A DNA stretch of 28,556 nt from Candidatus Heimdallarchaeota archaeon (GTDB lineage: Archaea; Asgardarchaeota; Heimdallarchaeia; Hodarchaeales; Hodarchaeaceae). Positions 10,919 to 25,780 of the stretch are shown here, one piece after another; position 1 is the first letter of the stretch, and each line of letters opens with the position of its first letter. The stretch covers positions 1 through 28,556 of the forward strand of contig DXJL01000184.1 in NCBI GenBank assembly GCA_019057635.1, in the 5' to 3' direction. A program made the translations under genes and the position numbers. The notes under the pieces are model-generated. The model did no database searches. It was given only the letters and a program-made list of their open reading frames with translations, and had not been told where the DNA came from.

Positions 10919-11146
10919 GTGACAAGTCAACCAATACTCCAACCGAAAGGTCTTCCCTTTCTGGATGAAGTCTTTGTAAATAGTCCCCTTTGTCAAATAT
11001 GTGAGTTTGCTAACTGGGGAATAGGAGGAATTTGTTCATTATTGTTGAACAGGCGTATACCATCCGTTTTAGTAATACAAGAAGCGCAAGTGATCTCTTG
11101 TAGCGCTCATCGCAACTGGGTTGAGCATTTAGATTTAAATGAATAA
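10919..11146 (+). CDS. Small Cys4 putative Zn/FeS-binding protein
   Basis: CQIC...C...C pattern; AGGTGA at 10906-10911 lies 7 nt before the GTG; 8-nt overlap with the next gene. Confidence 0.65.
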   Translation: MTSQPILQPKGLPFLDEVFVNSPLCQICEFANWGIGGICSLLLNRRIPSVLVIQEAQVISCSAHRNWVEHLDLNE

Positions 11147-12599
11147 TCAAAAAAGGAATTATAACTCAATTAAGAACTGGATGGAACTAACTTTGAGCCT
11201 AACGAGGAGTGGTAATAAAATTTCTCATAAGCTTAAGTTTACTCCTTCACTGGATGAACAGATATTACTAGCTAAAATTCAAAGACAGAATTGCTTAATT
11301 CAGTATCGGCTCGAAGAGAAGCTTAATCGTATTCTGTCCTTGCTTATCAGTCTACATATCTCTAGAGAAAAAACACATGAATCCATTCCACGAGTACTCA
11401 TTCTTACTAAAAGACAAATTCAGGATATCTTCAGAGCAGGGATCCAGGATACCTTAGATCAGATTATAACGATCCATAATGGCCTTATACTCCCCCAAGC
11501 TCGAAAACTGGATTATAGTCGGTTTAGCATAATTCTCTCGACCCCTAAAACGGTGAAAAATGATTTTAAGGAAGATTTCTTTGTAAAAGATCACTTTTCA
11601 CTAATAGTGATTGATTATGCGGAAATGGGGGTATCCTCATCGACTTTACGATTTATTATCAAAAATTTAAAGCCGAACCAAGTAGTTGGTCTATCGAGAG
11701 AGAAAAATACAATAAAGCTTGGACAAGCTTGTGTAAACCTAGAGCTCACGGAATTTGTCAATATCGATGGAAATGCTAGGAGAGAACGGTCTAACATCCA
11801 ACATTATTCACTTCCTTTACCTAAAGAATATTTCTTTGTGCTAGATATTCTTAATCAGCTAAAAAAAAATAGATTAATACAACTTGAAAAGTTAGGGTTT
11901 GGAGTTACTGTGAAAAGCACTCCTCAAGAGGTAGCGGCAATCCATACTAGTTTGTTGAATGAAAAGAACCGAAAACTCTTAGTAAAAACAGCGAATTTAC
12001 AACGAATAATGACAATGCAACGAATGGTAATCTCTCAAGGTTTTCCTGCTCTCATATCTTATCTTGATGATTTACGTCACCGTCTAAATGATAATGATTA
12101 TGTCATAGGTAGAAAAGCTCTAGTTCAGTTTTTAGGAAATCCGATCATCAATAAACTCAATGAATATATTCGCTTATTTAGTGAGTTAGTTCATCCGAAA
12201 TTTCGACAGGTTTTGAAATTACTGGAGGACTATGGATCATCTGTTTCCCTAGTAACCAATAATCGATACAATGCAAAGTTTCTCCAGGAAAAGCTGAATG
12301 AAAAAGGAGTATCCACGATTAATATCACCCAACCGATATCTTCTCTAAAACGAATTCTGCTAGAAAAGAAACTCTTTGCTTTCAGTGGAAAGAAAACTCG
12401 AGTATGCATAACAAATACTGCTAATGAACTTATAGCTAATCTAGCTAATATAATTATTGCATATGATGTAAATGCAGAACTTGTAGAAAAATTGAATAGT
12501 TTGGCTTCTCCAATTCCCAAAGTTTTCTTAATTACGAAGCAAACGAGTGAGGAAGCAAGATTTTTCCATTTGAAAAACTTAGGAAACGGGATTAGATAG
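11139..12599 (+). CDS. Hef/FANCM(Mph1)-like SF2 helicase homologue, predicted catalytically inactive
   Basis: The Hef-like scaffold is retained (QNCLI, TPKTVKND, SLIVID, HPK, FLITKQTSEEA). Walker A GKT is absent, DEAH reads DYAE, and there is no QRxGRxGR. Confidence 0.75.
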   Translation: MNNQKRNYNSIKNWMELTLSLTRSGNKISHKLKFTPSLDEQILLAKIQRQNCLIQYRLEEKLNRILSLLISLHISREKTHESIPRVLILTKRQIQDIFRAGIQDTLDQIITIHNGLILPQARKLDYSRFSIILSTPKTVKNDFKEDFFVKDHFSLIVIDYAEMGVSSSTLRFIIKNLKPNQVVGLSREKNTIKLGQACVNLELTEFVNIDGNARRERSNIQHYSLPLPKEYFFVLDILNQLKKNRLIQLEKLGFGVTVKSTPQEVAAIHTSLLNEKNRKLLVKTANLQRIMTMQRMVISQGFPALISYLDDLRHRLNDNDYVIGRKALVQFLGNPIINKLNEYIRLFSELVHPKFRQVLKLLEDYGSSVSLVTNNRYNAKFLQEKLNEKGVSTINITQPISSLKRILLEKKLFAFSGKKTRVCITNTANELIANLANIIIAYDVNAELVEKLNSLASPIPKVFLITKQTSEEARFFHLKNLGNGIR

Positions 12600-14336
12600 G
12601 AAAAATCTATTCATTTTAGCAAAAAAGGTATCATACGCTTGATAACAAATATTGAGGTCGCGAAATACATTCGATTTTGGTAACATTGTGCGGAGAGAAG
12701 CAGCACGATAATCTAAGATTAAACTCGCAGCAAAATCAGTTTCCGATCGAATACCTCTTCCGATCGCCTGGGTCATTACTCGGGTGACTGGTAAAAGAGT
12801 GAGATGATCGGCCATTCTCCTACCCCATTTTTTAGCGTACAGAGTTTTGATTAATCGGTTTGTCGCGTCTGGGCGGGTATACGGTACACCTGCAATAATA
12901 ATTAGAGTCAATAAGCTTCGTTTTGTTTTCGGGTCGAGTATTTCGATACCTTCAGATAATTTTCCACCAAGGACACCAAATATAACCTCATGGGTTTTTT
13001 GGGGTAATTCGTCAATAAAATATGGAGTTTCTCCCGAATTTTCAACATAAACATTAGGGATCGTCATATGAACTAGAATCTTTTGTTTCAAGTCATGTGA
13101 TGGAGCAAAAACTATAGTGTGAAAGGGGTTACTCTGGTGTAAACGCTGTATAACTGAAGCCATAGCTTGAAAGGTTCGAGGAGTTCTTTCTCTGAATTTC
13201 GTGGTGAATTGTCTGTGATAAAGTATACCATTAAGGCTATATTGAAAATCTGATGGAATATGCATCCCGGGATAATTTAGCCCATAGAGCGTTTTGTAAG
13301 ACGATACAGGTTGAAATGTCCCAGACATAAGAACTATATTCTGGAAGTTATTATTCACAAATTTAAATGTAGTTTGAGGATAAGGATTAAGCTGTAGTAA
13401 TTTTTCTGACTCAGAAACCCAGATATCTCCCCGACTGTTAAGAAACCTTGAGATTGTCTGGAGATTTGTCTGTTCCCAAGGTGAAATTTTTGTTTGATGA
13501 TCGAGAAATGCATCTATCGCATCAGAGGACAAATTTTGGGGGCGATCAATTCGACCATGCCGATTCTGTATCAAGTCCTGTAATCTATCAAATACTTTTA
13601 ACGGGATGACATTCCTCGCCTTATTAATATCGTTTAAAGATAGCTCTGCTTCTAGCTCTGCGGAAAAATTATGTCCTTCGTCAATTATGCAAATTTTATT
13701 TGCGTAGGTGCTTTTCTGGAGGAGTGTGGACAGCATACTCTGCAATTTTTTACTTCTCAAGTAGGTATGTGTAGTAACAACGATATTTGCATACGGGATA
13801 CAACGCTTGACAATATAATATGGACATCCGAATTCTTGTAGCGCATCTTTGAAAGTTTCATTTTTGATATCCCCTTCATCATGAGCTGTAATGGGGACCT
13901 GTTCAACAATGGCAGGAAAATCTTCTTCGGGGATGGAACGGGCTTCTTCAAGATGCGGACAACGTATCTGAACACAAATACCTTGATAGAAAAATGGAAT
14001 ATCATGTCTTATACATAAATCAGACTTCAAAATTAATGGAAGAGCGGTTAAATAACCATATCTTTCCGTATTTGCAATTTTACTAATTTCATTAAGAAAA
14101 ACATGGAAAATTTGAGCTTTAGTTCTTACAAAGATGAACAATTGGTACTGCTGTGTTTTCACACGGGGTAAAGTGCTGATAAGAGCCATAACGGTCTTTC
14201 CAAATCCAACAGGTGCGTGAATTATTGCGCGTGGATTTTTTTCAACAAATCGAAGAAATCGCGCTTGGTAAGCACGTAACTCCTCATGAGGAAACAGTTC
14301 CAGGTTAGGTGGGAGGTTTAATTTCAAAGATTGCAT
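12579..14336 (-). CDS. xpd: XPD/Rad3-family FeS-cluster 5'-3' DNA helicase
   Basis: Q motif LRAYQ, APVGFGKT, four FeS Cys (DLC, GIC, RCP, GCPYY), DEGHN, MSGT, GKLSEGI, QAIGRGIR and LDYR. Confidence 0.9.
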   Translation of the reverse strand: MQSLKLNLPPNLELFPHEELRAYQARFLRFVEKNPRAIIHAPVGFGKTVMALISTLPRVKTQQYQLFIFVRTKAQIFHVFLNEISKIANTERYGYLTALPLILKSDLCIRHDIPFFYQGICVQIRCPHLEEARSIPEEDFPAIVEQVPITAHDEGDIKNETFKDALQEFGCPYYIVKRCIPYANIVVTTHTYLRSKKLQSMLSTLLQKSTYANKICIIDEGHNFSAELEAELSLNDINKARNVIPLKVFDRLQDLIQNRHGRIDRPQNLSSDAIDAFLDHQTKISPWEQTNLQTISRFLNSRGDIWVSESEKLLQLNPYPQTTFKFVNNNFQNIVLMSGTFQPVSSYKTLYGLNYPGMHIPSDFQYSLNGILYHRQFTTKFRERTPRTFQAMASVIQRLHQSNPFHTIVFAPSHDLKQKILVHMTIPNVYVENSGETPYFIDELPQKTHEVIFGVLGGKLSEGIEILDPKTKRSLLTLIIIAGVPYTRPDATNRLIKTLYAKKWGRRMADHLTLLPVTRVMTQAIGRGIRSETDFAASLILDYRAASLRTMLPKSNVFRDLNICYQAYDTFFAKMNRFFLSNPVS

Positions 14337-14339
14337 TCC

Positions 14340-16949
14340 TCAGTGTGAATCCAGTTCTTCTTTGAGCGTTTTTCCTCGTTTGAAAAAAGCAAAATGGATA
14401 TCAAGGACTCCATTTTCGGGGTAAGTTTTTAGCTCTAATGCCTTTGTGAAAGATTGTAGGGTAAGAAATCGCTCATTTGGCAAGAAATGTTCGAGTTTTC
14501 CAGAATATCTTTCGGAAACAGATGGTAAAGTGGGAGGTTGATTATTCATTTCACTCTCAAGGGCAGCATCAATATTTTTGACAACCACTAATAACTCTGT
14601 GCATAATTCATGAGCTGTAGTGTACAATTGACGAAAGTCTTGGCCTTCTATCCCAGTAATTGCCATTAAGTCGGTATATTGGGCATAGCGATCCCACGGT
14701 ATAGCATTACTCATTTGGTATACATAATGAAATACCTCACCGACCATTTTTTTTATCTTAGCATTTTCTTCGTGGCATTTCTGGACAGAGGAGGATCTAT
14801 CAAAAAAAATTTCTGAATCTAAGATTTTCTGTGGAGTTTGATCGAATTCAGCATAATTTCGAATAACAGGTAAATTCCCCAATATTGTCTCTTGTGCTTC
14901 GTAATATGCGTTCCCTTTAGCTGTAATCGCCCAATGTTTTGCTCCATCTTCTGACTCCTCAATGTATAATTTTTGTGACCTTAATTTGTTCAAGAGTATT
15001 TCTTCATCAAGGGTAAACTCTCTCGTGTCTTTGATTGCATCTCTACGGATTGGTTGAGCTCTAAGAATCTTGAGGAGTTTCATTAAGCTCAAATATGCCT
15101 TAGGAGTAAGACCAAAAGTTTTCTCCCCTCGTAATTTTGTTTCTGGGACTCTGACTGTATTGAGATCTAATGGAACTTTTGCAGAATCCATCTTAAAATG
15201 ATAAGCGGTACTCTGGGAAGTATCTCTACGAAATAACAATCCTTCACCCTCCATTATTCCCATAATTTGCCGTTCAATTGCTGAAGATTGAGTGAATTTC
15301 CTTACTTGCAATTGATGTTGAGTGATTACAATTTCTCTATCTTGAGTATTCACTAAACGTAGGTAGATTTGATTTTTTATTTCCTCAAATGAATTTACTT
15401 TCAAAGCTAAAGCTTGAACACTTTGGCTTCCCAGCAAAAAAATATTGTTACGTGCTATTGCATTACACGAATCGATCAGTACAGTCGGAATCTGTGTTTC
15501 AGCCCTTCCATAACCTGTTTTTCTGCTCAAAATCTCATCGGCATGAGGAAATACAATGCATCCATCATTTGCTTCATTGGATAAAAATTGAAGTAAAAAT
15601 GCAATGACGGCGCGTTTAATCATTGGAGGTTGAGCTCCGAATTGGAATATTGTAACTGAATCACTACGAAACAGCGTATTCCTCAGATGACCAGTAAAAG
15701 CTGCATAATTAACTTCAGAAAAGGATTTGAATTGGTCTAAAATACCATCTAAATGTTCTATGGCCATGATGTCAGCAAAAACGGAATCTATAGGGGCAGG
15801 GTCAGCATTAGGACTCTCTTCTTCGATTGATGAATCATTAAAGCCTCCGATTGTTGTCTTTACATCATTAAGAGTAAAGGAAGTTTGAACTTTCGCCGTG
15901 TTTTTAATTTGGGTTTCAAGTGGTATGGCAAATCTTGAAGTAAGGTAATCAGAAGTTGTTAAAGAGCTTATAAGAATATTACTAATAAGAAAAGCCTTCC
16001 AAGCTGCGATAGCTTCAGAATCTCGCATTAAACCATTAGGAGTAAGGGGAATGGTGACATCACATAAGTTTACAAACATATTTGTACCTAATTGGAATGA
16101 TTGAAAGTTCATTCCTTTTTTATTAGCTGCTATTGTTTGAAAATGGCGAATTAAGCCATTAAATTCATTGTGAGTATCAATGATAAATATTCCATGATGA
16201 TTTCTCTTATGACTAAAAGAGAGAATCAAATTCTGAAAGAGAGTAATTAGTTCATTCTTATCTGATCCACATACTAGCACAGATCCAGTTGATAGATTAG
16301 GAAAACCAACTGGTATTGAAGCATTATCAATTCGATGGCCTACCCTATGTTTGACCGGTAAGTCGGGGACAGCAAAATCTTGAATAAATCGAGATGGGAC
16401 TCGTTCGAGATTAAAGAATTTGTCAATTAATCGAGAATTGGATCCAGTTTGAGAAGGGAAAATCGAAATACCTTCTTTTACTTTCCCTCCACGAAAGTGA
16501 ATTAGTTCTACCTGTTTCCCTTTAACGAGCGAGACTTCAAATCCTGTTGCCTGGAGAATGGTATAGGTCATTGATCTTCGTTTTAAAAATTCTTTCCTTC
16601 CCCGACAAAGCAATATAGGAATTGTTGTCTCGGAACGAATATGAAAGTGATAGTAGACACGGACAATGAGTGAAAGACCTGTGTAAGAAATCTCCTGTCG
16701 TGAAAACTTCTTTAATTTCCGTGGGAGAGCAGAAAATACTTGTCGTATGACCTGAACTCCAGGTTGGCTTGTGACTCGAAATAAATTCTGAGAAGAATTT
16801 TCTAAATCATGGACTGGTTGAATCGCAAAATATGAGACAAGTGTTCCAGAAGAAGCATACAATTTATCGACGTCAGAGGAAAGATGTTCAATTTGAAGAA
16901 GGGTTGAATTATCCTCCAGAATTCTTGTCGAAAGTTGTGTCGAAAGCAT
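14340..16949 (-). CDS. HerA/VirB4(DUF87)-like P-loop protein, predicted inactive ATPase, with wHTH-like C-terminal region
   Basis: The motif order VLVCGSDKNE, IIDTHNEF, IVFPHADE, GSQS, NQIYLRLVNTQD, EGEGLL mirrors HerA-type motifs, but Walker A and B are degenerate. ITAKG is a wHTH-type wing signature. Confidence 0.65.
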   Translation of the reverse strand: MLSTQLSTRILEDNSTLLQIEHLSSDVDKLYASSGTLVSYFAIQPVHDLENSSQNLFRVTSQPGVQVIRQVFSALPRKLKKFSRQEISYTGLSLIVRVYYHFHIRSETTIPILLCRGRKEFLKRRSMTYTILQATGFEVSLVKGKQVELIHFRGGKVKEGISIFPSQTGSNSRLIDKFFNLERVPSRFIQDFAVPDLPVKHRVGHRIDNASIPVGFPNLSTGSVLVCGSDKNELITLFQNLILSFSHKRNHHGIFIIDTHNEFNGLIRHFQTIAANKKGMNFQSFQLGTNMFVNLCDVTIPLTPNGLMRDSEAIAAWKAFLISNILISSLTTSDYLTSRFAIPLETQIKNTAKVQTSFTLNDVKTTIGGFNDSSIEEESPNADPAPIDSVFADIMAIEHLDGILDQFKSFSEVNYAAFTGHLRNTLFRSDSVTIFQFGAQPPMIKRAVIAFLLQFLSNEANDGCIVFPHADEILSRKTGYGRAETQIPTVLIDSCNAIARNNIFLLGSQSVQALALKVNSFEEIKNQIYLRLVNTQDREIVITQHQLQVRKFTQSSAIERQIMGIMEGEGLLFRRDTSQSTAYHFKMDSAKVPLDLNTVRVPETKLRGEKTFGLTPKAYLSLMKLLKILRAQPIRRDAIKDTREFTLDEEILLNKLRSQKLYIEESEDGAKHWAITAKGNAYYEAQETILGNLPVIRNYAEFDQTPQKILDSEIFFDRSSSVQKCHEENAKIKKMVGEVFHYVYQMSNAIPWDRYAQYTDLMAITGIEGQDFRQLYTTAHELCTELLVVVKNIDAALESEMNNQPPTLPSVSERYSGKLEHFLPNERFLTLQSFTKALELKTYPENGVLDIHFAFFKRGKTLKEELDSH

Positions 16950-16967
16950 TCCAACTCAGCTCCATGC

Positions 16968-16983
16968 AAAAAGAAAAGAAAGA
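16968..16983 (-). terminator. U-rich terminator-like tract after radA
   Basis: The minus strand reads TCTTTCTTTTCTTTTT immediately after the radA stop. Confidence 0.45.
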
Positions 16984-18000
16984 CTATTTCCCTGAATAAT
17001 CACGAACCCCATCTGTATCAATAGAAAATTCAATTTTTCCGTCAGGTAACTCTGGATTCTTGGTAAGTGTTGCTGTACGCTTTATATCTTTTCCTTTTCT
17101 CAAAAAAATTCGTGTAGTAACCGTATGTCCGACTACATTTCCTCCAATAGGTTTATTGGGATCACCGAAGAACATTGCATCAGGTTTGGCTGATACCTGA
17201 TTAGTAACTACTGCAACGCAATTCATAATCTCAGATTGCTTTGCGATGAATGATAGATATTTCCCAATTAGTTGTTGGCGCTCTGCCAGTGAGCTTCGAC
17301 CAGCAAATTCCGATCGAAAATGTGCCATTAATGAATCCACGATTATTAATCCTACATTAGGTACCATAGTCAAAGCTTCTTCGGTTAACGCCATTTGATG
17401 CTCACTATTGAACGCTCTACCTACAGTAATCCGTGATAGTACTGTATCGGGATCTTGATCTAAGGCCTTGGCTATTTGAGTTATTCTGGTGAATCGAAAA
17501 GTGCCTTCAGTATCAATCCATATTACATCTCTTCCATTTTTCACACAATTTACCGCCAGTTGATGAGAAATTTGGGTTTTCCCACAACCATTTTCACCTG
17601 CAATTTCTGTAATCGATCCAGTTTCAAATCCACCACCTAAAAGTTCGTCGAATGCCTGAGAACTGGTAGTTAGATATTGACGTGTTTCACCTAACTTTGC
17701 GTAATGGGATCCTGGTTTTAATCCAAGATCAAATTGCGAACGAGCCTCTCGTATAAGTAACCTAGCTGTTTTTTCAGCAATTCCGGATATTTCAGTTAGC
17801 TGAGCGCGGGTAGCTAGTGCTATGGTCTCTTTACTACCAAAACCAGCTTCTTCTAGTCGTTTTCGTGTTGTGGGACCAATCCCAGAGATTGTATCAAGGA
17901 AGTTTGTCTCTTTTTTGTCTTTTCCTTTGTTTTTCTTTCCTTTTTCAGGAATTGGGTCCTCCACAACGCTTTTTTCTTTCTTTGTTTCAGCTTTTGCCAT
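16984..18000 (-). CDS. radA: DNA repair and recombination protein RadA (Rad51 family), divergent
   Basis: N-terminal HhH domain (ISGIGPTT, ISGIAEKTA), GENGCGKTQ, IDTEGTF, IIVDS, L1 loop GRSSLAERQQ and L2 region PIGGNVVGH. Confidence 0.92.
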   Translation of the reverse strand: MAKAETKKEKSVVEDPIPEKGKKNKGKDKKETNFLDTISGIGPTTRKRLEEAGFGSKETIALATRAQLTEISGIAEKTARLLIREARSQFDLGLKPGSHYAKLGETRQYLTTSSQAFDELLGGGFETGSITEIAGENGCGKTQISHQLAVNCVKNGRDVIWIDTEGTFRFTRITQIAKALDQDPDTVLSRITVGRAFNSEHQMALTEEALTMVPNVGLIIVDSLMAHFRSEFAGRSSLAERQQLIGKYLSFIAKQSEIMNCVAVVTNQVSAKPDAMFFGDPNKPIGGNVVGHTVTTRIFLRKGKDIKRTATLTKNPELPDGKIEFSIDTDGVRDYSGK

Positions 18001-18057
18001 TTATAATACTTCCATTTGTTGTATTTTGTACTATTCAAAATGGAAAGATAACTGAAA

Positions 18058-18072
18058 CTTAAATATCTGAAA
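18058..18072 (-). promoter_or_regulatory. Conserved promoter motif TTTCAGATATTTAAG upstream of radA
   Basis: Plus-strand CTTAAATATCTGAAA, 57 nt upstream of the radA ATG; identical to 8831-8845. Confidence 0.65.
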
Positions 18073-18094
18073 TCAGAAAGAATCGTTTTTTTAT

Positions 18095-18110
18095 AAACCA
18101 CTTATAAATA
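18095..18110 (+). promoter_or_regulatory. BRE/TATA-like promoter for the surface-protein operon
   Basis: AAACCACTTATAAATA; normal archaeal spacing predicts a transcription start near 18130. Confidence 0.5.
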
Positions 18111-18163
18111 GTAATTTCGAATATAAAAGATGAAGAAGCCCCTCATTACTGAGGGTCTCTAGT

Positions 18164-21100
18164 TTGTGGAAAAAAAAGAGAAAAATACAAAATACTTTGA
18201 TTCTAATTTTCGTACTCGGATTGTTTGTCTTAGTAAATATAGGAGTTAACCAGGTTAGTGCTACTGATCAAGAGACTTCGACAACAGTTCTAGCTGATAA
18301 AGGGGTTGTGGGTTCAGGTGATGTGATTCGCTTTTCTATTTGGACGTACGCAGGTTTTGACTCTGTACCTTTTGGACAAATACGATTAACAGATATTTTT
18401 ACCGGGGAATTTATTGAGACAATGATTACCAATGGTACAGCGGAAGTTGACTGGATTGTACCATCGCCAATTCAATCTGGAGAGCATTTATTCCTCGCTG
18501 AATATCTTGGTTTTTTGGGATATCTTTCCTCTGATGGATCGTGTAAAGTTCGATTTGAAGAGATTAGTCCTGGCAGCACTCGTTCAACATCTTTACAACT
18601 AGTTGTGAACTCAACGACCGTTTATAGGAATGCTTCACTCCATTTTACTCTTAATTTATTTATTCATTATAGGTGGTGGTTCCAAGGAGGGTATATCACT
18701 GTAATTAATGTTAATTTAACTGGAGCTCCAGTAATTTATACCTATGGTCCATTAGAAAACTATTATCCAGGGACTGATCCTGCAATTTTGACGCTTGAGT
18801 TTGATTATAATATTCCTGTGTTTTCTGTCGTCGGAAAATCACAGTTTTATGCGAGCTATACTGGTAGCTCTCAAAGCCAAACATCTCCCTGTACATCAAA
18901 CCCTGTCAATGTAACGGTCTTGAGCTCGGGATTTTGGCTTTACCAGACCATTAATACCACAAAACTTCAACGGACCGAAGAATCAGTCGTTATCAATACC
19001 ACAATTCTTGGAGATAATCCAAATGGATTATTGCTCTCAATATACTATTTACTTGGCTCACAACCAATGATTCTTACAGAAAAAGTGATTCATGGTCGAA
19101 ATTATCAAATAGTGTTTTCACCTAACAGTTCAATTCCCTTGGGTGAACTAACGATTTACACGGAGCTAAAAAATGACCAGTACGATTTATATGCTAATGT
19201 CTCATCAACTATTACAATACAGAATCGTGCTCGGATCCAATATTATTTGAATTCTTCAGATTATAGGCAAAATGAAACAATTCATCTCGAAGCCTACATT
19301 ACATTAGAAGATATACATACTGTTCCCGTTACGTGCCAAGTAGAATTCAGGGATTTAACTGATGGGAATATTTCATTGATGAATAAATTTACTAACTCAG
19401 ATGGATATGTGGCCTTTAATTATCCTCTTCCAGAAGGAATCAGCATCGGAAACCATGAATTTTCACTCCGAGTATTTGATGTAACACTAAATATTCTCGC
19501 AGTCTCAAGTATAATTCTAGTATCTATTAAGGGGTTAATTGAGTTTGATTTGACTTATGAAAGCGGAGGGATTAATCGAAACACAGATACTCAGATTCAA
19601 GTGACAGTTCACTCGGGAGGTGTAACAATTAATGAGGGGTTAGTCTCATTGGAGTACAGTAATTCTACTATTATTGATACTCAGAGCTGCGTATCAGGAC
19701 TTATTTTTAATTATCACATCCGTAATGATCACTCCTTAGGTGATATTTACCTCCTTGTCCATTTCTATAATTCCGAAAATTATGATGAAGGAGCTACTAC
19801 ATTAAAATTAACTGTGTTTTCGGTTCCCCATTTTAGTTCTCTGAATCAAAATTCAACAGAAGTGATTAATGGGCAATCATGCCGTCTTTGGGGGTATTTG
19901 CTTGACGAAGGTGGAAAAGCTGTAATCAATGAAGCAATCCACTTTACTGATACGACGACTGGAGAATTTTTGGGTTTTGTCACCTCTGATGTAGAAGGAC
20001 TATTTTTCTTTGACTATTCTGTGACCGTATCATCCCAAATAGGAGTACATATCTTACAATGCAGCTATCAAGGGAATGTAGGAGCTTTTTATTTACAGTC
20101 AATTAGTCCAGCAATTTTTTCTATCACGATTCGTCCTCCTCTTTCAGTTATGATTCAAGGATCCATCCTCTCAAATCACTGGACAATGATAGAACTAGAA
20201 GGTGGGTTGAATGAAGATATTTCCCTTTATTGGCAACGGGATGGAGAGAGTACTTGGAATTTTATTGCCGTAATCGCATTAAATGCTTCTGGACTAGGAA
20301 ATTATAATTGGACAACACCTTATTACAAAGGTGGATTATCTTTACGAGCTTCAAATCTCAATGGTACGAATACTAAATATGATCATACATTCATGTACAG
20401 TACTGCTGACATTGAAGTAATCGGTGGTGATTATGGAAATGTAAATGATAATTATTTATTTACAGTTAACTGTACGGAAGTTTATCAGATTTGGATGGAG
20501 GGTCAATTATGGAGAGACTGGTCACCAGCAGGAAAACATTCATACTCATATAGCTTCAATAACAGAGGAGTAAAAGAAATTTCCATAATTAGTAATGATA
20601 CATACGTCTATTATCGGATTCTTCATTCTCAAGTAACAATTTTTGAAGACCTAATTATTTCTGTAAGCATTCCTGGGGAAGCTTTTGTGAATATGTCAAT
20701 TCATATTGATGGTAATGTTATAGGAGAAGTTTCGGGTCCTATCATGGGAGTAGATACGATTCTACTGATGGGTGGGATGGAGAATGGGGTTGATTCTACA
20801 AATGGTGCAGGTATCTTCGATTTCATAATTTCATTTGATCAGCCTGGAATCTATACAGTTTCTGTAAAAGTGCCTTTACAATTCGAAGATTATTTCAATA
20901 CCTCATTTAGTCCTCAATTTTCAATTGTAATTCATTCTTTACCTTCTACGATAGAAATTCTTTCACCTGTCAACAACTCTATTCATGGATCTATATTAGA
21001 GCTATCTTTCCGAGGAGATGCTGTGAGTTATTGGTACTTTATTGAACCTCTTGATCAAACGAATAGCTCGTGGACGGATACTGCATATCGTGACTTACCT

Positions 21101-22978
21101 GAGGGGTTATATACTTGTCATGTTTATGGTGAAAATTCCTATGGGTTTTTATCTTATGCTTCTTCATCGTTCAGGATTGATTCAACTGCGCCTTCATTAG
21201 TAATTATAAGTCCAAAGAATGAGTCATACAAAACGAATTCTATTTCACTTTCATTTTTAACTGATGAAGAAACTGTATTTATTTTTTTAGATGATACGCC
21301 AATCGTTGGAAGCTCAGGTTTCGTTTTAACTGACTTATCTGAAGGAAATCACAACGTTACTATTCAGGTTAGAGATACTGCTGAGAATTTTGTCATTAAA
21401 ACCTCAATTTTCAATATTGATACAATTGCTCCTTCTCTAACGATTTTTTCCCCCTATAATTACACCTATATTGAAAAAATACCTTTATCCATCAATTCAG
21501 ATGGTCAAACAATCCTATATTGTATTCCAGAAGTAAATAATACTAATCAGACATATACTACATCATTAGTACTGTATTTACCCATTGGCAGTTATTCACT
21601 CAATGCTTATTCATTTGACTCTGCTGGAAACTTTATATCAGCGCAAGTAAATTTTTCTGTGGTAGAAAAAGTTGATCTTTTAACTAATTCGTATCTCACA
21701 GAAATTGACTCTGCTGGAAACTATCTCCTAAGTACAGAGATATTATCAAATCCATATTTCGAACAAGTCGGAATATATTTGAATGGGAGCCATTTTGGGG
21801 TGTTGGAATGGGATGCGTTTCAGCGGGATTATCGAATTCAATTTCAGTTTCCTTCCCCTGGCCTATGGGAAATCTCATTGTATGCCCACACAGCTGAAAA
21901 TAAGTACGATTTTAGACTATTTCTTGAAAGCTGGTATCCACCACAGCCAACTATCAATTCTCTGTCCGTTTCATGGAAATCGACTTATTATGAATTAAGA
22001 ACAACGATCGATTCACAAACTCTTGACCTTAATCTTGTCCAGGTAACGCTTGATGGTATGAATTACAGTTTAAGTAATTATTTTGGTGATCAATGGTACA
22101 CACAAGTTTACTGCAACCCACAAAATTACACTCTTAGGTTAGACATATGGTATCCATGGGATGACAAGCCTTCTGCTAGCAGAGATTTTGAAATTCTGTG
22201 GTATGCCCCCCATATCATTGTAGTGGAATCAGAATTCGAAAGAAATGGGTTTAATCTTGAAATTCGAGTTGAGAAGGTAAATGCATCACTTTCTACTGAT
22301 AATCCCTTTCTAGCAATCGAAAGTGGGTCTCAAGTTTTCATTGCTGATGGAACTTTGATTTATGAATCAACAACAGGAAGCTATCAAATCTGGCTATTCA
22401 CTTCTCCGTGGTTAACTCCGAATGTTTGGAACTATAATCTAACTGTATTCGATATTTATGGACATTCAAGTCAGTTTTTTGGGATTTTTAACTCAACGGA
22501 TTCTCCTCCAAAGATAGGAGCATCATCCCTAGTAATCCTTGATAACACATCCACTGGGATCCTCTATCGATTAAACGTCCAAGTATTTGATGATTTTGAT
22601 GGAATAGAAGCTTTTCTGTATATTAATGGTGTCGAATTTCCATTCACTCAGATAAATAATTCGTACGTATCCGTTGATTTCTTTTTAACTCAAGGCTCCT
22701 ATGTTCTTCAATTATCAGTAATAGATGATATAAATCAAGAAACAACGGAATTTTTAACGAATTTATACGTCCAGAGTCCGATTGATCAAACCACTACTAC
22801 TACTTCTGGAACAATAGATACAACCGACCCACCGGATCTAACTTCTCAGACAAGTACTCGAAAAGAGGTTAATTTGGATACAGGTATAAATGACTTGATC
22901 GAAATAGGTATCGGAGGAGGACTTTTTGCTAGTCTTGTCGCTCTCGGTAATACAGTTCTTCGAAAAAGGGAACCGTGA
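18164..22978 (+). CDS. Large secreted, C-terminally anchored multi-Ig-domain surface glycoprotein (S-layer/adhesin-like)
   Basis: Basic-plus-hydrophobic signal peptide, beta-rich repeats, three ~80-aa Big-type repeats at about 20950-21660 (IDSTAPSLVIISP, IDTIAPSLTIFSP), many N-x-S/T sequons, a Thr-rich linker and a C-terminal TM helix with basic tail. Confidence 0.88.
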   Translation: MWKKKRKIQNTLILIFVLGLFVLVNIGVNQVSATDQETSTTVLADKGVVGSGDVIRFSIWTYAGFDSVPFGQIRLTDIFTGEFIETMITNGTAEVDWIVPSPIQSGEHLFLAEYLGFLGYLSSDGSCKVRFEEISPGSTRSTSLQLVVNSTTVYRNASLHFTLNLFIHYRWWFQGGYITVINVNLTGAPVIYTYGPLENYYPGTDPAILTLEFDYNIPVFSVVGKSQFYASYTGSSQSQTSPCTSNPVNVTVLSSGFWLYQTINTTKLQRTEESVVINTTILGDNPNGLLLSIYYLLGSQPMILTEKVIHGRNYQIVFSPNSSIPLGELTIYTELKNDQYDLYANVSSTITIQNRARIQYYLNSSDYRQNETIHLEAYITLEDIHTVPVTCQVEFRDLTDGNISLMNKFTNSDGYVAFNYPLPEGISIGNHEFSLRVFDVTLNILAVSSIILVSIKGLIEFDLTYESGGINRNTDTQIQVTVHSGGVTINEGLVSLEYSNSTIIDTQSCVSGLIFNYHIRNDHSLGDIYLLVHFYNSENYDEGATTLKLTVFSVPHFSSLNQNSTEVINGQSCRLWGYLLDEGGKAVINEAIHFTDTTTGEFLGFVTSDVEGLFFFDYSVTVSSQIGVHILQCSYQGNVGAFYLQSISPAIFSITIRPPLSVMIQGSILSNHWTMIELEGGLNEDISLYWQRDGESTWNFIAVIALNASGLGNYNWTTPYYKGGLSLRASNLNGTNTKYDHTFMYSTADIEVIGGDYGNVNDNYLFTVNCTEVYQIWMEGQLWRDWSPAGKHSYSYSFNNRGVKEISIISNDTYVYYRILHSQVTIFEDLIISVSIPGEAFVNMSIHIDGNVIGEVSGPIMGVDTILLMGGMENGVDSTNGAGIFDFIISFDQPGIYTVSVKVPLQFEDYFNTSFSPQFSIVIHSLPSTIEILSPVNNSIHGSILELSFRGDAVSYWYFIEPLDQTNSSWTDTAYRDLPEGLYTCHVYGENSYGFLSYASSSFRIDSTAPSLVIISPKNESYKTNSISLSFLTDEETVFIFLDDTPIVGSSGFVLTDLSEGNHNVTIQVRDTAENFVIKTSIFNIDTIAPSLTIFSPYNYTYIEKIPLSINSDGQTILYCIPEVNNTNQTYTTSLVLYLPIGSYSLNAYSFDSAGNFISAQVNFSVVEKVDLLTNSYLTEIDSAGNYLLSTEILSNPYFEQVGIYLNGSHFGVLEWDAFQRDYRIQFQFPSPGLWEISLYAHTAENKYDFRLFLESWYPPQPTINSLSVSWKSTYYELRTTIDSQTLDLNLVQVTLDGMNYSLSNYFGDQWYTQVYCNPQNYTLRLDIWYPWDDKPSASRDFEILWYAPHIIVVESEFERNGFNLEIRVEKVNASLSTDNPFLAIESGSQVFIADGTLIYESTTGSYQIWLFTSPWLTPNVWNYNLTVFDIYGHSSQFFGIFNSTDSPPKIGASSLVILDNTSTGILYRLNVQVFDDFDGIEAFLYINGVEFPFTQINNSYVSVDFFLTQGSYVLQLSVIDDINQETTEFLTNLYVQSPIDQTTTTTSGTIDTTDPPDLTSQTSTRKEVNLDTGINDLIEIGIGGGLFASLVALGNTVLRKREP
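21615..21722 (+). repeat. Perfect 18-bp direct repeat within the surface-protein gene
   Basis: TTGACTCTGCTGGAAACT at 21615-21632 and 21705-21722 (90-nt period); both copies encode DSAGN. Confidence 0.75.
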
Positions 22979-22983
22979 ATTAA

Positions 22984-23550
22984 ATGAAAAATAGTACTCA
23001 TTATCTATTCTCGCTCGGATTTACAAATTTATATGGGATGTTGATAGTAGAGGAGATGTTCTCCTCTTGGATAATTATGGTACTATCAACGATTACCAGT
23101 TTGTTCAGTTTGGTTCCGAATATCATAGATCGATATGTTAATGTTCAATATGAAAATGAGGGTGTTTTATTAACAAGGAATAGACATCCTCTTACACACT
23201 CTCCTTGGACAGTTTTCTATTTCCTTCCCTTCCTTTATCTTGGACAGAAATCTAATGTAACAATTTTAGAAGTTGTAATAATATTATTTACAATAAGTTG
23301 GCTTTCACATTTATTAATAGATTCATTAAATCCCGGGGGATTACCTTTAGGAAAACGATCTGTCTTCAGTAATCATCCTGTTAAGCATTACAAGTTTCAT
23401 TGGACCCTCCCCCGAAATACAAAACGAATACGTATTGCTCGAATCCCGTTCAATGATCCAAGAGTAAATAAGAATTTGGGTTATCTGGGGTTATTCATTT
23501 TTTCCTTAAATTGTGCAAGAATGTTCCTTTCATTATTTTGGAGTTATTGA
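22984..23550 (+). CDS. Membrane-bound metal-dependent hydrolase-like protein (YdjM/DUF1286-like)
   Basis: THYLFS, PNIID, RHPLTHS and SHLLID motifs set among several TM helices. Confidence 0.75.
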   Translation: MKNSTHYLFSLGFTNLYGMLIVEEMFSSWIIMVLSTITSLFSLVPNIIDRYVNVQYENEGVLLTRNRHPLTHSPWTVFYFLPFLYLGQKSNVTILEVVIILFTISWLSHLLIDSLNPGGLPLGKRSVFSNHPVKHYKFHWTLPRNTKRIRIARIPFNDPRVNKNLGYLGLFIFSLNCARMFLSLFWSY

Positions 23551-23553
23551 AGA

Positions 23554-24612
23554 ATGTGTCTGATAGATAAGAAACAAATTATCACTTTAGGTATCTTATT
23601 AATTATTATCCAGGGAATAACAGTAATTTGTAAAGGAGATTTAGCCAAGACACTCCAGCAACAAGAGAGTAAATCTAGTTCGTATGATTTGAATATCAAT
23701 TATACAATGGATAAACCAGAGTTAACTTTTAATCGTTTTATTGTCTTGTCTAGACAATGGGATAAGTTATTTCTAAATTTATCCATTCAAAATTTTGGAG
23801 AACCAATTGATACTATCTTAACTACAATCAAAATTAATGGTATCATTACAGATCACGTTTTTTCAAGTAATGAAAGAGAAGGCCTTAAGAATTGTCTTGT
23901 TTATCAGTTTGATCAACCTCAGGCATTGATGATTCCGCTAAATTATTCATATCAAGAAATACTCTCCGTTTCTGTTTCCATGAATCTAGACTCCCTCATA
24001 TCTTGGCGCGAAGTGGAATATAATTTCACAATATTTTCGGCAATTGTTCATGCAGTTGATCTTGTACAACCCCTTAGTGAACAATCTTTGATGATTTTGT
24101 CTAGCAACTTCCAATATGCTCTTCAACCGTCACAAATATCATTTTTTGGTAAAAAAATACTTACAAAAAGTCTACTTCCTGTGGATATTCCTGATAATTT
24201 GTATCTTTCATCAATTCTTGAAATTACTATTAAAGGCGGACAATTTGATTACTTAGCACTTGGAACGGGAAGAAATCATGCCATAGATGGGAATGTTGTA
24301 AGAATAAATTCAACAGTCAATAAAGTCGATCTTGAAAACCAGATTTGGCATATTAATCTCTATATTATCCCGATTATTTCCTCTACTGATGATTATTCTA
24401 CAATAAGTATTTCTATTAGAGCTTATGGCCTTCTGAAGGAAATTAAAACATTAAATAACAATTTAGAGTCGGTTAGTCATCCCATTCCTGGATTTATAAT
24501 GATTCCAGTACTGATCTTCATTCTGTTTGGGATTCCATATTATTATGTCTATCAGGAGGAACTTTCTGAAAAAGACGATCGAATCATAGATTCAGGCTTA
24601 GGAAAAATGTGA
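23554..24612 (+). CDS. Exported, membrane-anchored hypothetical protein
   Basis: N-terminal hydrophobic signal, beta-rich middle with N-glycosylation sequons, C-terminal TM helix (GFIMIPVLIFILFGIPYYY). Confidence 0.8.
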   Translation: MCLIDKKQIITLGILLIIIQGITVICKGDLAKTLQQQESKSSSYDLNINYTMDKPELTFNRFIVLSRQWDKLFLNLSIQNFGEPIDTILTTIKINGIITDHVFSSNEREGLKNCLVYQFDQPQALMIPLNYSYQEILSVSVSMNLDSLISWREVEYNFTIFSAIVHAVDLVQPLSEQSLMILSSNFQYALQPSQISFFGKKILTKSLLPVDIPDNLYLSSILEITIKGGQFDYLALGTGRNHAIDGNVVRINSTVNKVDLENQIWHINLYIIPIISSTDDYSTISISIRAYGLLKEIKTLNNNLESVSHPIPGFIMIPVLIFILFGIPYYYVYQEELSEKDDRIIDSGLGKM

Positions 24613-25061
24613 AGAACCCAGTGAATTCTCATCAACAATCTACGACATTAAGTAAACCAAATGTCTTGATAGGGGATTATTACAAGTGTGTGAGTCTTCT
24701 AATGACTGCTAGAATCGAAGAATGGGTGATTCCCAAAATATTATGGATTGATTTCCGAGTAGTTCCGTTACCTTATTTTTACCATATACTTCGTCGGTAT
24801 AAATCCTTGAAAAATAAGTTTTCTTTTATGGAAATATTGTCAATTGAGGATTATAAACAAATTCTTGGTTCAAATGAGCTTTCAACATACTTGAAAAATG
24901 GATTTTCTTCGCTGATTGTGAATTATCCGCCATTGTGTACTAACAATCATGAAAATTGGACATACCTTAAAAAATTAGCAGTTTCAATGGTCGTTAATGT
25001 TATCGTTTCCAAAGATCTGTTTCCAGCAAACGAATGCACACGCTTTGTAGTTGACTCATAA
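24609..25061 (+). CDS. Hypothetical protein, probable degenerate RecA/Rad51-paralogue fold
   Basis: NVLIG, KILWID, SSLIVN and LKKLAVSMVVNVIVS follow the RecA core order, with no GKT/S. GTGA and TAATG overlaps with its neighbours. Confidence 0.55.
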   Translation: MKNPVNSHQQSTTLSKPNVLIGDYYKCVSLLMTARIEEWVIPKILWIDFRVVPLPYFYHILRRYKSLKNKFSFMEILSIEDYKQILGSNELSTYLKNGFSSLIVNYPPLCTNNHENWTYLKKLAVSMVVNVIVSKDLFPANECTRFVVDS

Positions 25062-25780
25062 TGGAAACCATTGATAGAGTTAAAAGTCTTCAAGAAATAA
25101 ATGAAGAGCTAGAAAAATCCATTAAAATCACGATGGGTATTGATATTATTGATAATCTTATAGGGGGTCTTATTGCAGGACAAATCCATTCGATTTTAGG
25201 TGAATCGGGAGTCGGAAAATCGTGGTTCTGTCAACAGGCAATTAACTCAATACTCACTAGTGATCGGAATGCGAATGTTATTTATTCGGATTTTTCAGGA
25301 AATATTCGATTTCAGAATCTCAAAAAAACTTTGAATTGTGAAGAATTTCTGGATCAGGTGAATTTTTTCCACCCAAATTCTATTTTAGAGAATATCATCC
25401 TAATTAAAAAAATTGTTGAGGGACAGTATTCGGATATTTCCCTACTAATTTTAGACACAATATTTGGTTCACCTATGCAACTTATTGAGCTTTTTGGCGA
25501 ATCTAAGAAAAAATGGACACGAAATATCTTTTATTTTATGTTAGATCTTAGAAAAATCGCTATTAGAAGAAACATACCTATCATCATTGCTCATCATGCT
25601 TTTTCCGATGCTTCAAAGGAGTTAGCAAGTAAAGATAGATTAATAGATCCTTTTTGTATGACAAAATCAGTATTACATAAATCTAGTAATGGATCCTCAC
25701 TAGATTTCTATATATACAATCAATCTCTTGGATCAACCACTATTAAACTGTATTCGGATAGGGATGAGGATTTAGAATAG
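25061..25780 (+). CDS. RadB/Rad51-paralogue-like RecA-family ATPase
   Basis: ITMGIDIIDNLIGGL, Walker A GESGVGKS, Walker B LLILDT and LRKIAIRRNIPIII; no N-terminal HhH domain. Confidence 0.85.
   Translation: METIDRVKSLQEINEELEKSIKITMGIDIIDNLIGGLIAGQIHSILGESGVGKSWFCQQAINSILTSDRNANVIYSDFSGNIRFQNLKKTLNCEEFLDQVNFFHPNSILENIILIKKIVEGQYSDISLLILDTIFGSPMQLIELFGESKKKWTRNIFYFMLDLRKIAIRRNIPIIIAHHAFSDASKELASKDRLIDPFCMTKSVLHKSSNGSSLDFYIYNQSLGSTTIKLYSDRDEDLE

Follow-up and report, generated by a model that had tools for sequence, protein, structure and literature searches.

A stop/start-coupled gene pair of a Hodarchaeales-type Asgard archaeon is predicted to encode a heterodimer of two RecA-fold proteins that may assist RadA

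Do two small, overlapping genes of an Asgard archaeon encode the two halves of a heterodimeric module derived from the recombinase RadA, and would such a module serve RadA filaments? The question is raised by a 28,556-nucleotide (nt) stretch of DNA (the window), which makes up contig C165 in the 3.19-Mb assembly (91.6% complete) of an Asgard genome of the Hodarchaeales type. The genes specify a protein of 150 amino acids (aa), here named A (open reading frame, ORF, A), and one of 239 aa, named B (ORF B). A first-pass annotation, made from the letters alone, had proposed that they form a recombination mediator composed of one active and one degenerate Rad51-paralogue-like subunit. We read A and B as two RadA-derived RecA-fold proteins that would form one heterodimeric module, whose likeliest role would be that of an accessory of RadA filaments, and we consider this reading in its entirety to be evenly balanced between right and wrong. 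Its structural part, drawn from predicted models, appears quite probable, and the recombination role, which is argued by analogy, is tentative.

On the forward strand, ORF A opens with a GTG and occupies positions 24609-25061, and ORF B opens with an ATG and occupies positions 25061-25780. One base is common to the TAA stop of A (25059-25061) and the ATG of B (25061-25063), and both the resulting TAATG (25059-25063) and the lengths of the two frames were borne out by the ORF list and the sequence as the first-pass annotation had described them. The GTG of A in turn overlaps the stop of the upstream gene, which encodes a 352-aa membrane-anchored protein, by 4 nt (ATGTGA, 24607-24612). No ORF of 50 aa or more is present on the opposite strand of 24609-25780. 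A stop/start overlap of A and B, of 1-17 nt, recurred in all ten loci in which both ORFs have ordinary length; among the remaining two of the 12 loci, in L009 the call of the B ORF begins at an ATG further upstream, and L011 is interrupted by in-frame stops. The spacing between the 352-aa gene and A was more variable, with a 4-nt overlap in four of nine tabulated loci and a separation of 3-21 nt in the other five. A and B are real genes rather than chance ORFs, because relatives of A occur in 17 of 21 further genomes of the same genus-level group and B lies directly after A in all 12 loci fetched.

The smaller protein gave no match to Pfam, NCBIfam, PADLOC, PHROGs, or the PDB in hidden Markov model (HMM) searches. 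A first model, built from 10 sequences, was poor (predicted local distance difference test, pLDDT, 58.4), and its structure searches pointed the same way as those of the second model, built from 22 sequences, on which the results given here rest. The second model (pLDDT 85.2, predicted template modelling score 0.80) has an alternating beta/alpha core with strands at residues 18-21, 44-48, 71-75, 101-105, 128-133, and 144-147. The segments from which a RecA-type strand order had initially been proposed fall on elements of this confident model, in that ILWID forms strand 44-48, SLIVN strand 101-105, and VNVIVS strand 128-133, and LKKLA lies in the helix at 113-124.

Structure comparisons of A by VIA-align placed six Rad51-family chains or complexes at the top, namely XRCC3 (Z 11.2), RAD51C (11.1), yeast Rad51 (11.0), DMC1 (10.8), RAD51C-XRCC3 (10.6), and RAD51D (10.6), with 135-145 residues aligned (144 in the best row), where rows within 1 Z unit are treated as tied. 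Lower matches comprised UvsX (9.9), RadB (9.8), Twinkle (9.8), FlaH (9.4), KaiC (8.8), Psy3-Csm2 (8.7), and Sso2452 (8.2). In total, 34 PDB representatives reached Z of at least 8, and the best 30 rows all belonged to the RecA superfamily except for a corrinoid adenosyltransferase (1g5r). Foldseek, which had been put forward as a check for a RecA-like match, returned 27 matches at E ≤ 1e-3, and its best 40 rows were all RAD51, RadA, or DMC1 (best E 7.6e-5, TMq about 0.6). At the position of the P-loop, A has IG-D-Y, and none of 22 family members carries GK[ST], in agreement with the initial description of a protein without Walker A. The Walker B position (SLIVN) is likewise without a conserved Asp, and the protein ends shortly after beta5, such that L2 and the C-terminal sheet are missing. 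Hence, A is confidently predicted to be a minimal RecA core without a P-loop.

The larger protein, which the Pfam, NCBIfam, PDB profile, and hhalign comparisons below place as a divergent RadA/RadB-type P-loop protein, has an intact Walker A, GESGVGKS, at residues 47-54 (25199-25222), as had been recognized at the outset, and the motif is present in nine of nine B-family members. In the family alignment, the Walker B motif LLILD (residues 128-132, 25442-25456) retains an invariant D132. Other hallmarks of RadA have gone. The helix-hairpin-helix (HhH) N-terminal domain is absent, and YSDFSGN (residues 75-81, 25283-25303) stands in place of RadA IDTEGT in the PDB profile alignment and in hhalign, with S, Q, N, C, or K at the position of the catalytic Glu across the family. 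The TNQV of RadA, containing the Gln sensor of ATP, is replaced by AHHA, TNH, or TNY. As the first-pass annotation had also stated, KHR, which we take to be a RadB motif, is missing (0/9 members), as is the consensus of both loops, with an SPMQL-like sequence where L1 has HFRAE and a shortened L2 without GG..H. The label 'active' given to B at that time does not stand, since the catalytic Glu of IDTEG, the Gln of TNQ, and the GG..H of L2 are all missing. Judged by these motifs, B is a nucleotide-binding remnant, for which 'active' is unwarranted; ATP binding by B is probable, with hydrolysis weak or absent, and B is unlikely to be a strand-exchange protein.

One further motif may connect B to the way in which RadA polymerises. 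VKSL (residues 7-10, 25079-25090), of the form hydrophobic-x-x-hydrophobic, is aligned with the FxxA polymerisation motif of RadA, and eight of nine B members have [VL]xx[LFI] at this position, the ninth having PIPF.

With regard to family placement, B scored marginally above the threshold of Pfam Rad51 (PF08423; 23.5 bits, cut-off 22) and below that of Pfam KaiC (PF06745; 22.7 bits, cut-off 26.6), the latter over residues 25-69 only. Among NCBIfam models, it reached 40.9 bits for RadB (TIGR02237, cut-off 172.4), 32.8 bits for RadA, and 19.4 bits for ArlH (NF052589, cut-off 215). Across the nine B members, matches were found to RadB (nine), KaiC_arch_4 (eight), RadA (six), and ArlH (five); RadB was the best NCBIfam family for all nine (best E 1.7e-12), each far below its cut-off. 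When the B profile was compared with the PDB, the best match was Sulfolobus RadA (2bke, E 6.9e-10, residues 8-185), and RAD51D, RAD51B, DMC1, and RadB aligned over approximately 160-175 residues, whereas KaiC matches covered the Walker A region only. Similarly, hhalign of B against seven RadA and three RadB-like proteins of these genomes gave 98.9% (E 1.3e-17) over 230 columns running from the polymerisation linker to the C-terminus, versus 97.7% over 112 N-terminal columns against six KaiC-like proteins of the same genome. The B HMM recovered all ten RadA/RadB-like proteins at 19-57 bits, mostly in long alignments, and all six KaiC-like proteins at 3-21 bits in alignments that were N-terminal only. 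Because the RadA/RadB alignments are full-length and the KaiC ones N-terminal only, we read B as a very divergent RadA-derived paralogue, by the extent of alignment and not by tree.

We then consider whether A and B would bind each other. The predicted A+B complex had an interaction prediction score from aligned errors (ipSAE) of 0.77 (0.78, 0.77, and 0.77 in the individual runs) versus 0.01 for the best control, in line with the heterodimer that had been proposed. At least 89% of contacts agreed between runs, and pLDDT of the partner was at least 77. Of 157 solved complexes, 116 reach this ipSAE mark, as do 2 of 215 mismatched pairs; these counts hold only roughly here, as the alignments were made for this analysis. 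The tightest predicted contacts were those of B residues 7-10 and 13 with A residues 71-74, which belong to the strand FSFM with an invariant F73; further contacts joined the B helix 153-169 and residues 197-200 to A residues 49-58, and the P-loop of B (residues 47-54) was not part of the interface. In RAD51-BRC4 and in filament structures, the FxxA motif of one protomer is paired to the beta-3 edge of the next. The placement of the B strand on the beta-3 edge of A is thus predicted to be a contact of the protomer-to-protomer type. No comparable N-terminal motif is present in A, whose residues 1-12 have pLDDT below 50 and whose residues 1-16 are poorly conserved. Five of the 11 most conserved positions of A fall among its 30 interface residues (of 150; p 0.044). 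Binding of A to B is supported by prediction.

These elements would fit together as follows. B would have kept the P-loop and the Walker B Asp of its RadA ancestor and lost the HhH domain, the catalytic Glu, the Gln sensor, and the consensus of the DNA-binding loops, and A would be a 150-aa remnant of the RecA core (beta1 to beta5 plus one strand) without a P-loop. The N-terminal strand of B, at the FxxA position of RadA, would dock on the beta-3 edge of A in the same way that RadA/Rad51 protomers dock on each other, and A would end the chain because it has no polymerisation motif of its own. A-B could then act as an accessory of RadA filaments, either as a mediator or as an end cap, like RadB and the eukaryotic Rad51-paralogue dimers. 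The gene pair itself, its motifs, the joint inheritance, and the narrow distribution are directly observed, whereas the fold of A and the A-B interface are predicted; the binding of ATP without hydrolysis, contact with RadA, and a role in recombination are what we infer for the pair.

The distribution of the two genes was narrow. Relatives of A, with 25-96% identity, were found in the genome of the window (G000) and in the 17 same-group genomes counted above, and in none of the 19 genomes outside the genus-level group that were searched. A profile of A recovered 17 proteins alone from 1.84 billion representatives, all of 78-153 aa, with no fused or longer form among them. The profile of B scored at least 219 bits in 16 of the 21 other genomes of the genus as well as in G000, and the next best score across 83 genomes of the class was 57.5 bits. 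In a search of 5.8 billion proteins, the B family had 27 members at 233 bits or more, after which the scores dropped to 49 and 43 bits, for two RadA-named proteins, and 39 bits, for one of KaiC type. Both A and B are missing from G003, G008 (99% complete), and G013, in which RadA and the genes for a 1604-aa surface protein, a YdjM-like protein, and the 352-aa protein are retained. On the phylogeny of the 1604-aa protein, the three genomes branch within the carriers of the pair, which requires at least two changes. Thus, the pair was gained once, has been inherited at a fixed place, and has been lost together, as one unit, at least twice.

How does the pair compare to known systems? One study presents RadB as a recombination mediator in Haloferax volcanii whose proposed target is the polymerisation of RadA, and describes it as working without a partner and as restricted to Euryarchaeota; in the same account archaea rely on single RadA paralogues, for example RadB and SsoRal1, eukaryotic mediators act in heterodimers or tetramers, and C. 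elegans RFS-1/RIP-1 is named among the paralogue complexes (PMC5480776). Like RadB (TIGR02237; PDB 2cvf), B is a short RadA paralogue with Walker A and no HhH domain. Unlike RadB, it lies far beneath the family cut-off in score, lacks the catalytic Glu and 'KHR', and has an obligate small partner. Another Heimdallarchaeia family was found to have canonical RadB-like genes (240-253 aa, with GKT and DTEG) beside NAD synthetase and an ABCE1-like gene (L047-L049, genus g5). Other Heimdallarchaeia families also have RadA paralogues that are shortened at the N-terminus, at 280-307 aa, and retain FxxA (G034: L050:4927-5850, L051:4887-5729). In the 22 genomes of the genus of the window, canonical RadB was not found (best match 39 bits; 11 of 22 with a match at E ≤ 1e-6). 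A complementary distribution of canonical RadB and A-B had been considered and was dropped, as no such pattern appeared in the 22 genomes.

Architectural parallels are the eukaryotic Rad51-paralogue complexes whose terminal subunit is P-loop-poor, including RAD51D-XRCC2 in BCDX2 and in capping complexes (8faz, 9q25, 9svx), Rad55-Rad57 (9q2c), and Psy3-Csm2 (3vu9), some of which are described in PDB titles as capping RAD51 filaments. As in these complexes, there are two RecA-fold subunits of unequal completeness that form a dimer (predicted for A-B), and the best structural matches of A (XRCC3, RAD51C, Rad51, DMC1, and RAD51D, at Z 10.6-11.2) are members or relatives of them. No link of A-B to eukaryotic paralogues was obtained at the level of sequence or phylogeny, and A matches RadA/Rad51 equally well, within the range of ties. 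With the A-B family restricted to a single genus-level clade, convergence is the best reading of the resemblance. Crenarchaeal RadA paralogues (SsoRal1, in the available text of PMC5480776; Sso2452, PDB 2w0m) are also short RadA-like proteins that modulate RadA, and Sso2452 is the structure matched by A at Z 8.2, as listed above. A full-text literature search found no coupled pair of the present kind among the titles and abstracts listed. The crenarchaeal proteins are single P-loop proteins, and we know of none described as coupled with a partner that lacks the P-loop. The parts available to us of a 2025 study of Asgard RadA report RadA duplications in Heimdallarchaeia and relatives, and exclude 'highly divergent, or RadB' sequences from the trees (PMC12722695). 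A 2026 preprint names, in its available portion, RAD51/RadA and also a RAD51D-labelled catalogue cluster among Asgard-eukaryote structural clusters, and that portion describes no coupled pair (10.64898/2026.10.28.762692).

Several observations weigh against A-B as a RadA-derived module in the service of RadA. Paralogy of A and B at the sequence level was not borne out (hhalign 1.3%), and it is by predicted structure that A is related to RadA and B. The comparison of A with the RadA set gave 18.6% over 21 columns, and these columns coincide with the elements expected from the topology (alpha1 and beta2, with ILWID against VIWIDT). Pfam KaiC matched eight of nine B members at E ≤ 0.01, compared with five of nine for Rad51. 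A maximum-likelihood tree of 25 proteins (251 columns kept), comprising B, RadA, RadB-like, and KaiC-like sequences of these genomes and constructed without eukaryotic, euryarchaeal RadB, or solved KaiC/ArlH sequences, recovered B as monophyletic on a long stem of 2.13 changes per column, and the grouping of B with the RadB-like proteins had only 76/78 support. A tree constrained to unite B with the KaiC-like proteins was not rejected (approximately unbiased test, p-AU 0.465). As to whether B groups with KaiC/FlaH-type ATPases, one of the points on which the first-pass annotation had let its proposal stand or fall, profile alignments place B nearer to RadA/RadB and the tree does not reject B+KaiC. 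Moreover, B has no recognisable RadA-type DNA-binding loops. In addition to the rough calibration described above, the score of the A+B complex may reflect the memory that the model has of Rad51-type filaments. The pair is also dispensable, in that the three genomes described above keep RadA without A-B, and RadA accordingly does not depend on the pair. Its confinement to one genus-level clade, with at least two losses, favours a local invention over an ancestor of eukaryotic complexes.

A last group of opposing observations comes from the operon, in which the pair is co-packed with genes for envelope proteins. The genes of 18164-25780, of which A and B are the last two of five, are tightly packed, with gaps of at most 5 nt or overlaps. 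At their head is the gene for the surface glycoprotein-like 1604-aa protein (18164-22978, +; from the ORF list and sequence features), with an N-terminal hydrophobic segment, Ig-like domains, many NxS/T sites, and a C-terminal transmembrane (TM) anchor. It is followed by the YdjM-like membrane protein (PF04307, 31.7 bits; 22984-23550, +) and by the 352-aa protein (23554-24612, +), in which sequence features indicate N- and C-terminal TM segments and a conserved tail (HPIP...TM...PYYxVYQE), and whose gene is the one overlapped by the start of A. A-B could accordingly be the cytoplasmic ATPase module of an envelope apparatus, comparable to the RecA/KaiC-type ArlH (FlaH) of the archaellum and unrelated to recombination. 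The packing, the co-linearity of the operon in eight of eight wider loci, the overlap of A with a membrane-protein gene, and the automatic name 'archaellum biogenesis ATPase FlaH' carried by some family members all speak for such a module, as do the weak Pfam KaiC and NCBIfam ArlH matches (eight and five of nine B members), the unrejected B+KaiC tree, and the presence of FlaH among the structural matches of A (Z 9.4). B does share the P-loop core of KaiC/ArlH (PF06745; PDB 4yds, 4wia), but its matches to them are below cut-off and limited to the Walker A region, while it aligns with RadA to the C-terminus. The operon itself is retained without A-B in three genomes, and at four of four paralogous loci the YdjM-like and 352-aa-like genes are followed by a 235-aa TM protein, in the position of the pair, with A-B absent. 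The cytoplasmic tail of the 352-aa protein showed no dependence on A-B, being equally conserved with and without the pair, and this evidence is against a strict tie of A-B to the envelope genes. A single origin of the family in a narrow clade may by itself explain the constant context, through inheritance and not function, and the predicted interface lies at the position of the RadA-type polymerisation motif. On balance, we regard an envelope role as unlikely. No archaellum genes were found in the window. In an observation on the operon as such, the set of 1604-aa, YdjM-like, and 352-aa genes was kept in 20 of 21 genomes of the genus.

The pair evolves fast, with 25-35% identity of A and B between genomes for which the same comparison of the neighbouring RadA gives 71-77%. 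This pace would fit both a decaying or near-neutral leftover of local RadA duplications, kept by linkage and with no specific function today, and proteins engaged in some other DNA-linked process, such as control of replication forks or mobile elements, or defence. A leftover would also agree with the loss of catalytic residues, the repeated loss of the pair, and the in-frame stops observed in both genes of G021 and in B of G006. The frames are nonetheless open in most genomes (17 of 18 matches for A and 15 of 17 high-scoring matches for B), Walker A is kept in all nine B members, B has 29 invariant alignment columns and A, aligned from ten sequences, has 12, the stop/start coupling is preserved, and an interface is confidently predicted, such that we view decay as very improbable. 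We hold a role in another DNA-linked process to be just as improbable. The weak PHROG matches of B to a DnaB-like helicase and a UvsX-like recombinase, and a presence/absence pattern like that of an accessory gene, point in that direction, but PADLOC returned no defence-system match for A and one weak match for B (mad8, E 0.0011), GC is even across the locus (0.31-0.38) with no compositional sign of foreign origin, and the chromosomal position does not vary, with the ORF lists showing no adjacent integrase, repeats, or tRNA. For A-B as an accessory of RadA, by comparison, we count a neighbourhood that is rich in DNA-repair genes, including RadA, an XPD/Rad3-like helicase, a DEXH helicase, and a weak Hef-like ORF.

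The RadA paralogue of the window (16984-18000, -; NCBIfam RadA 347.6 bits, cut-off 259) is transcribed divergently from the operon and lies 6.6 kb from A, the distance at which the first-pass annotation had placed it. A divergently adjacent RadA-like gene was present in eight of eight wider loci, with at least 70% identity in seven and 39% in G015. The genome has four full-length RadA/Rad51-type genes (PF08423: 313, 301, 252, and 238 bits), of which the copy in the window scores lowest; the others are at C72:54794-55528, C68:25862-26602, and C20:9161-9865. The window copy has LKPG at the polymerisation motif, where the other copies have FxxA, and an orthologue has LKKA. Within the divergent intergenic region (18001-18163), two TATA-like boxes are conserved across eight genomes, one CTTAAATATC-like near RadA and one TTTCGARTATAAAA-like near the operon.

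RadA is the first of three genes arranged head to tail on the reverse strand (12579-18000), followed by those for an 869-aa protein and the XPD/Rad3-like helicase. No family or PDB sequence match was found for the 869-aa protein, and an early impression of a degenerate HerA-like P-loop in it was unsupported and dropped. Homologues of this protein (563-755 aa) divergently adjoin paralogous YdjM-like/352-aa-like pairs in other genomes (L055-L058). Further along are a DEXH/DEAH helicase (6036-8795, +), which scores 294 bits with NCBIfam TIGR03817 and 186 bits with the ligase-associated DEXH type, and a 486-aa ORF (11139-12599, +) with a weak Hef-helicase-like match (64.8 bits). Elsewhere in the same genome, at C91:11850-12281 (locus L017:1294-2091), a 265-aa ORF has a weak Rad51 match (23.8 bits) and, where a P-loop would be, LLQGDINRKLL without GK[ST]. 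Downstream of it, after 290 bp, is a 349-aa ORF truncated by the end of the locus. The C91 proteins are unlike those of the window in composition and may belong to a mobile element or to a binning contaminant.

Returning to A-B as a RadA-derived heterodimer, the structural half of the interpretation given in the first-pass annotation, that is, fold and heterodimer, is supported by predictions with controls, and a function as RadA mediator, reasoned by analogy, is plausible. The further suggestion that the pair might be informative on the origin of eukaryotic paralogue complexes appears doubtful, given its presence in one genus-level clade only and its repeated loss, and ancestry of those complexes is unlikely. 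More speculatively, and with greater doubt than we attach to the recombination role in general, A-B could be an independently evolved counterpart of the eukaryotic end-capping complexes, in which the RadA motif would dock into B, and B into A, capping or nucleating one end of the filament. Because the pair rides on a surface/membrane-protein operon within a cluster of repair genes, such a complex might serve the recombination of DNA taken up through cell contact.

Recombination in eukaryotes relies on dimers and tetramers of Rad51 paralogues, in which subunits with weak or dead ATPase sites shape Rad51 filaments. A-B is probably a local invention. As a young family of narrow distribution that genomes can do without, it probably has little bearing on how the eukaryotic complexes actually arose. 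If our reading of the pair is true, the coupling of a nucleotide-binding subunit, through the position of the polymerisation motif, to one without a P-loop would show that the architecture of paralogue complexes can arise from RadA within archaea, and this system of 150 + 239 aa would offer a simple model for how a dead RecA-fold subunit may cap or steer a recombinase filament.

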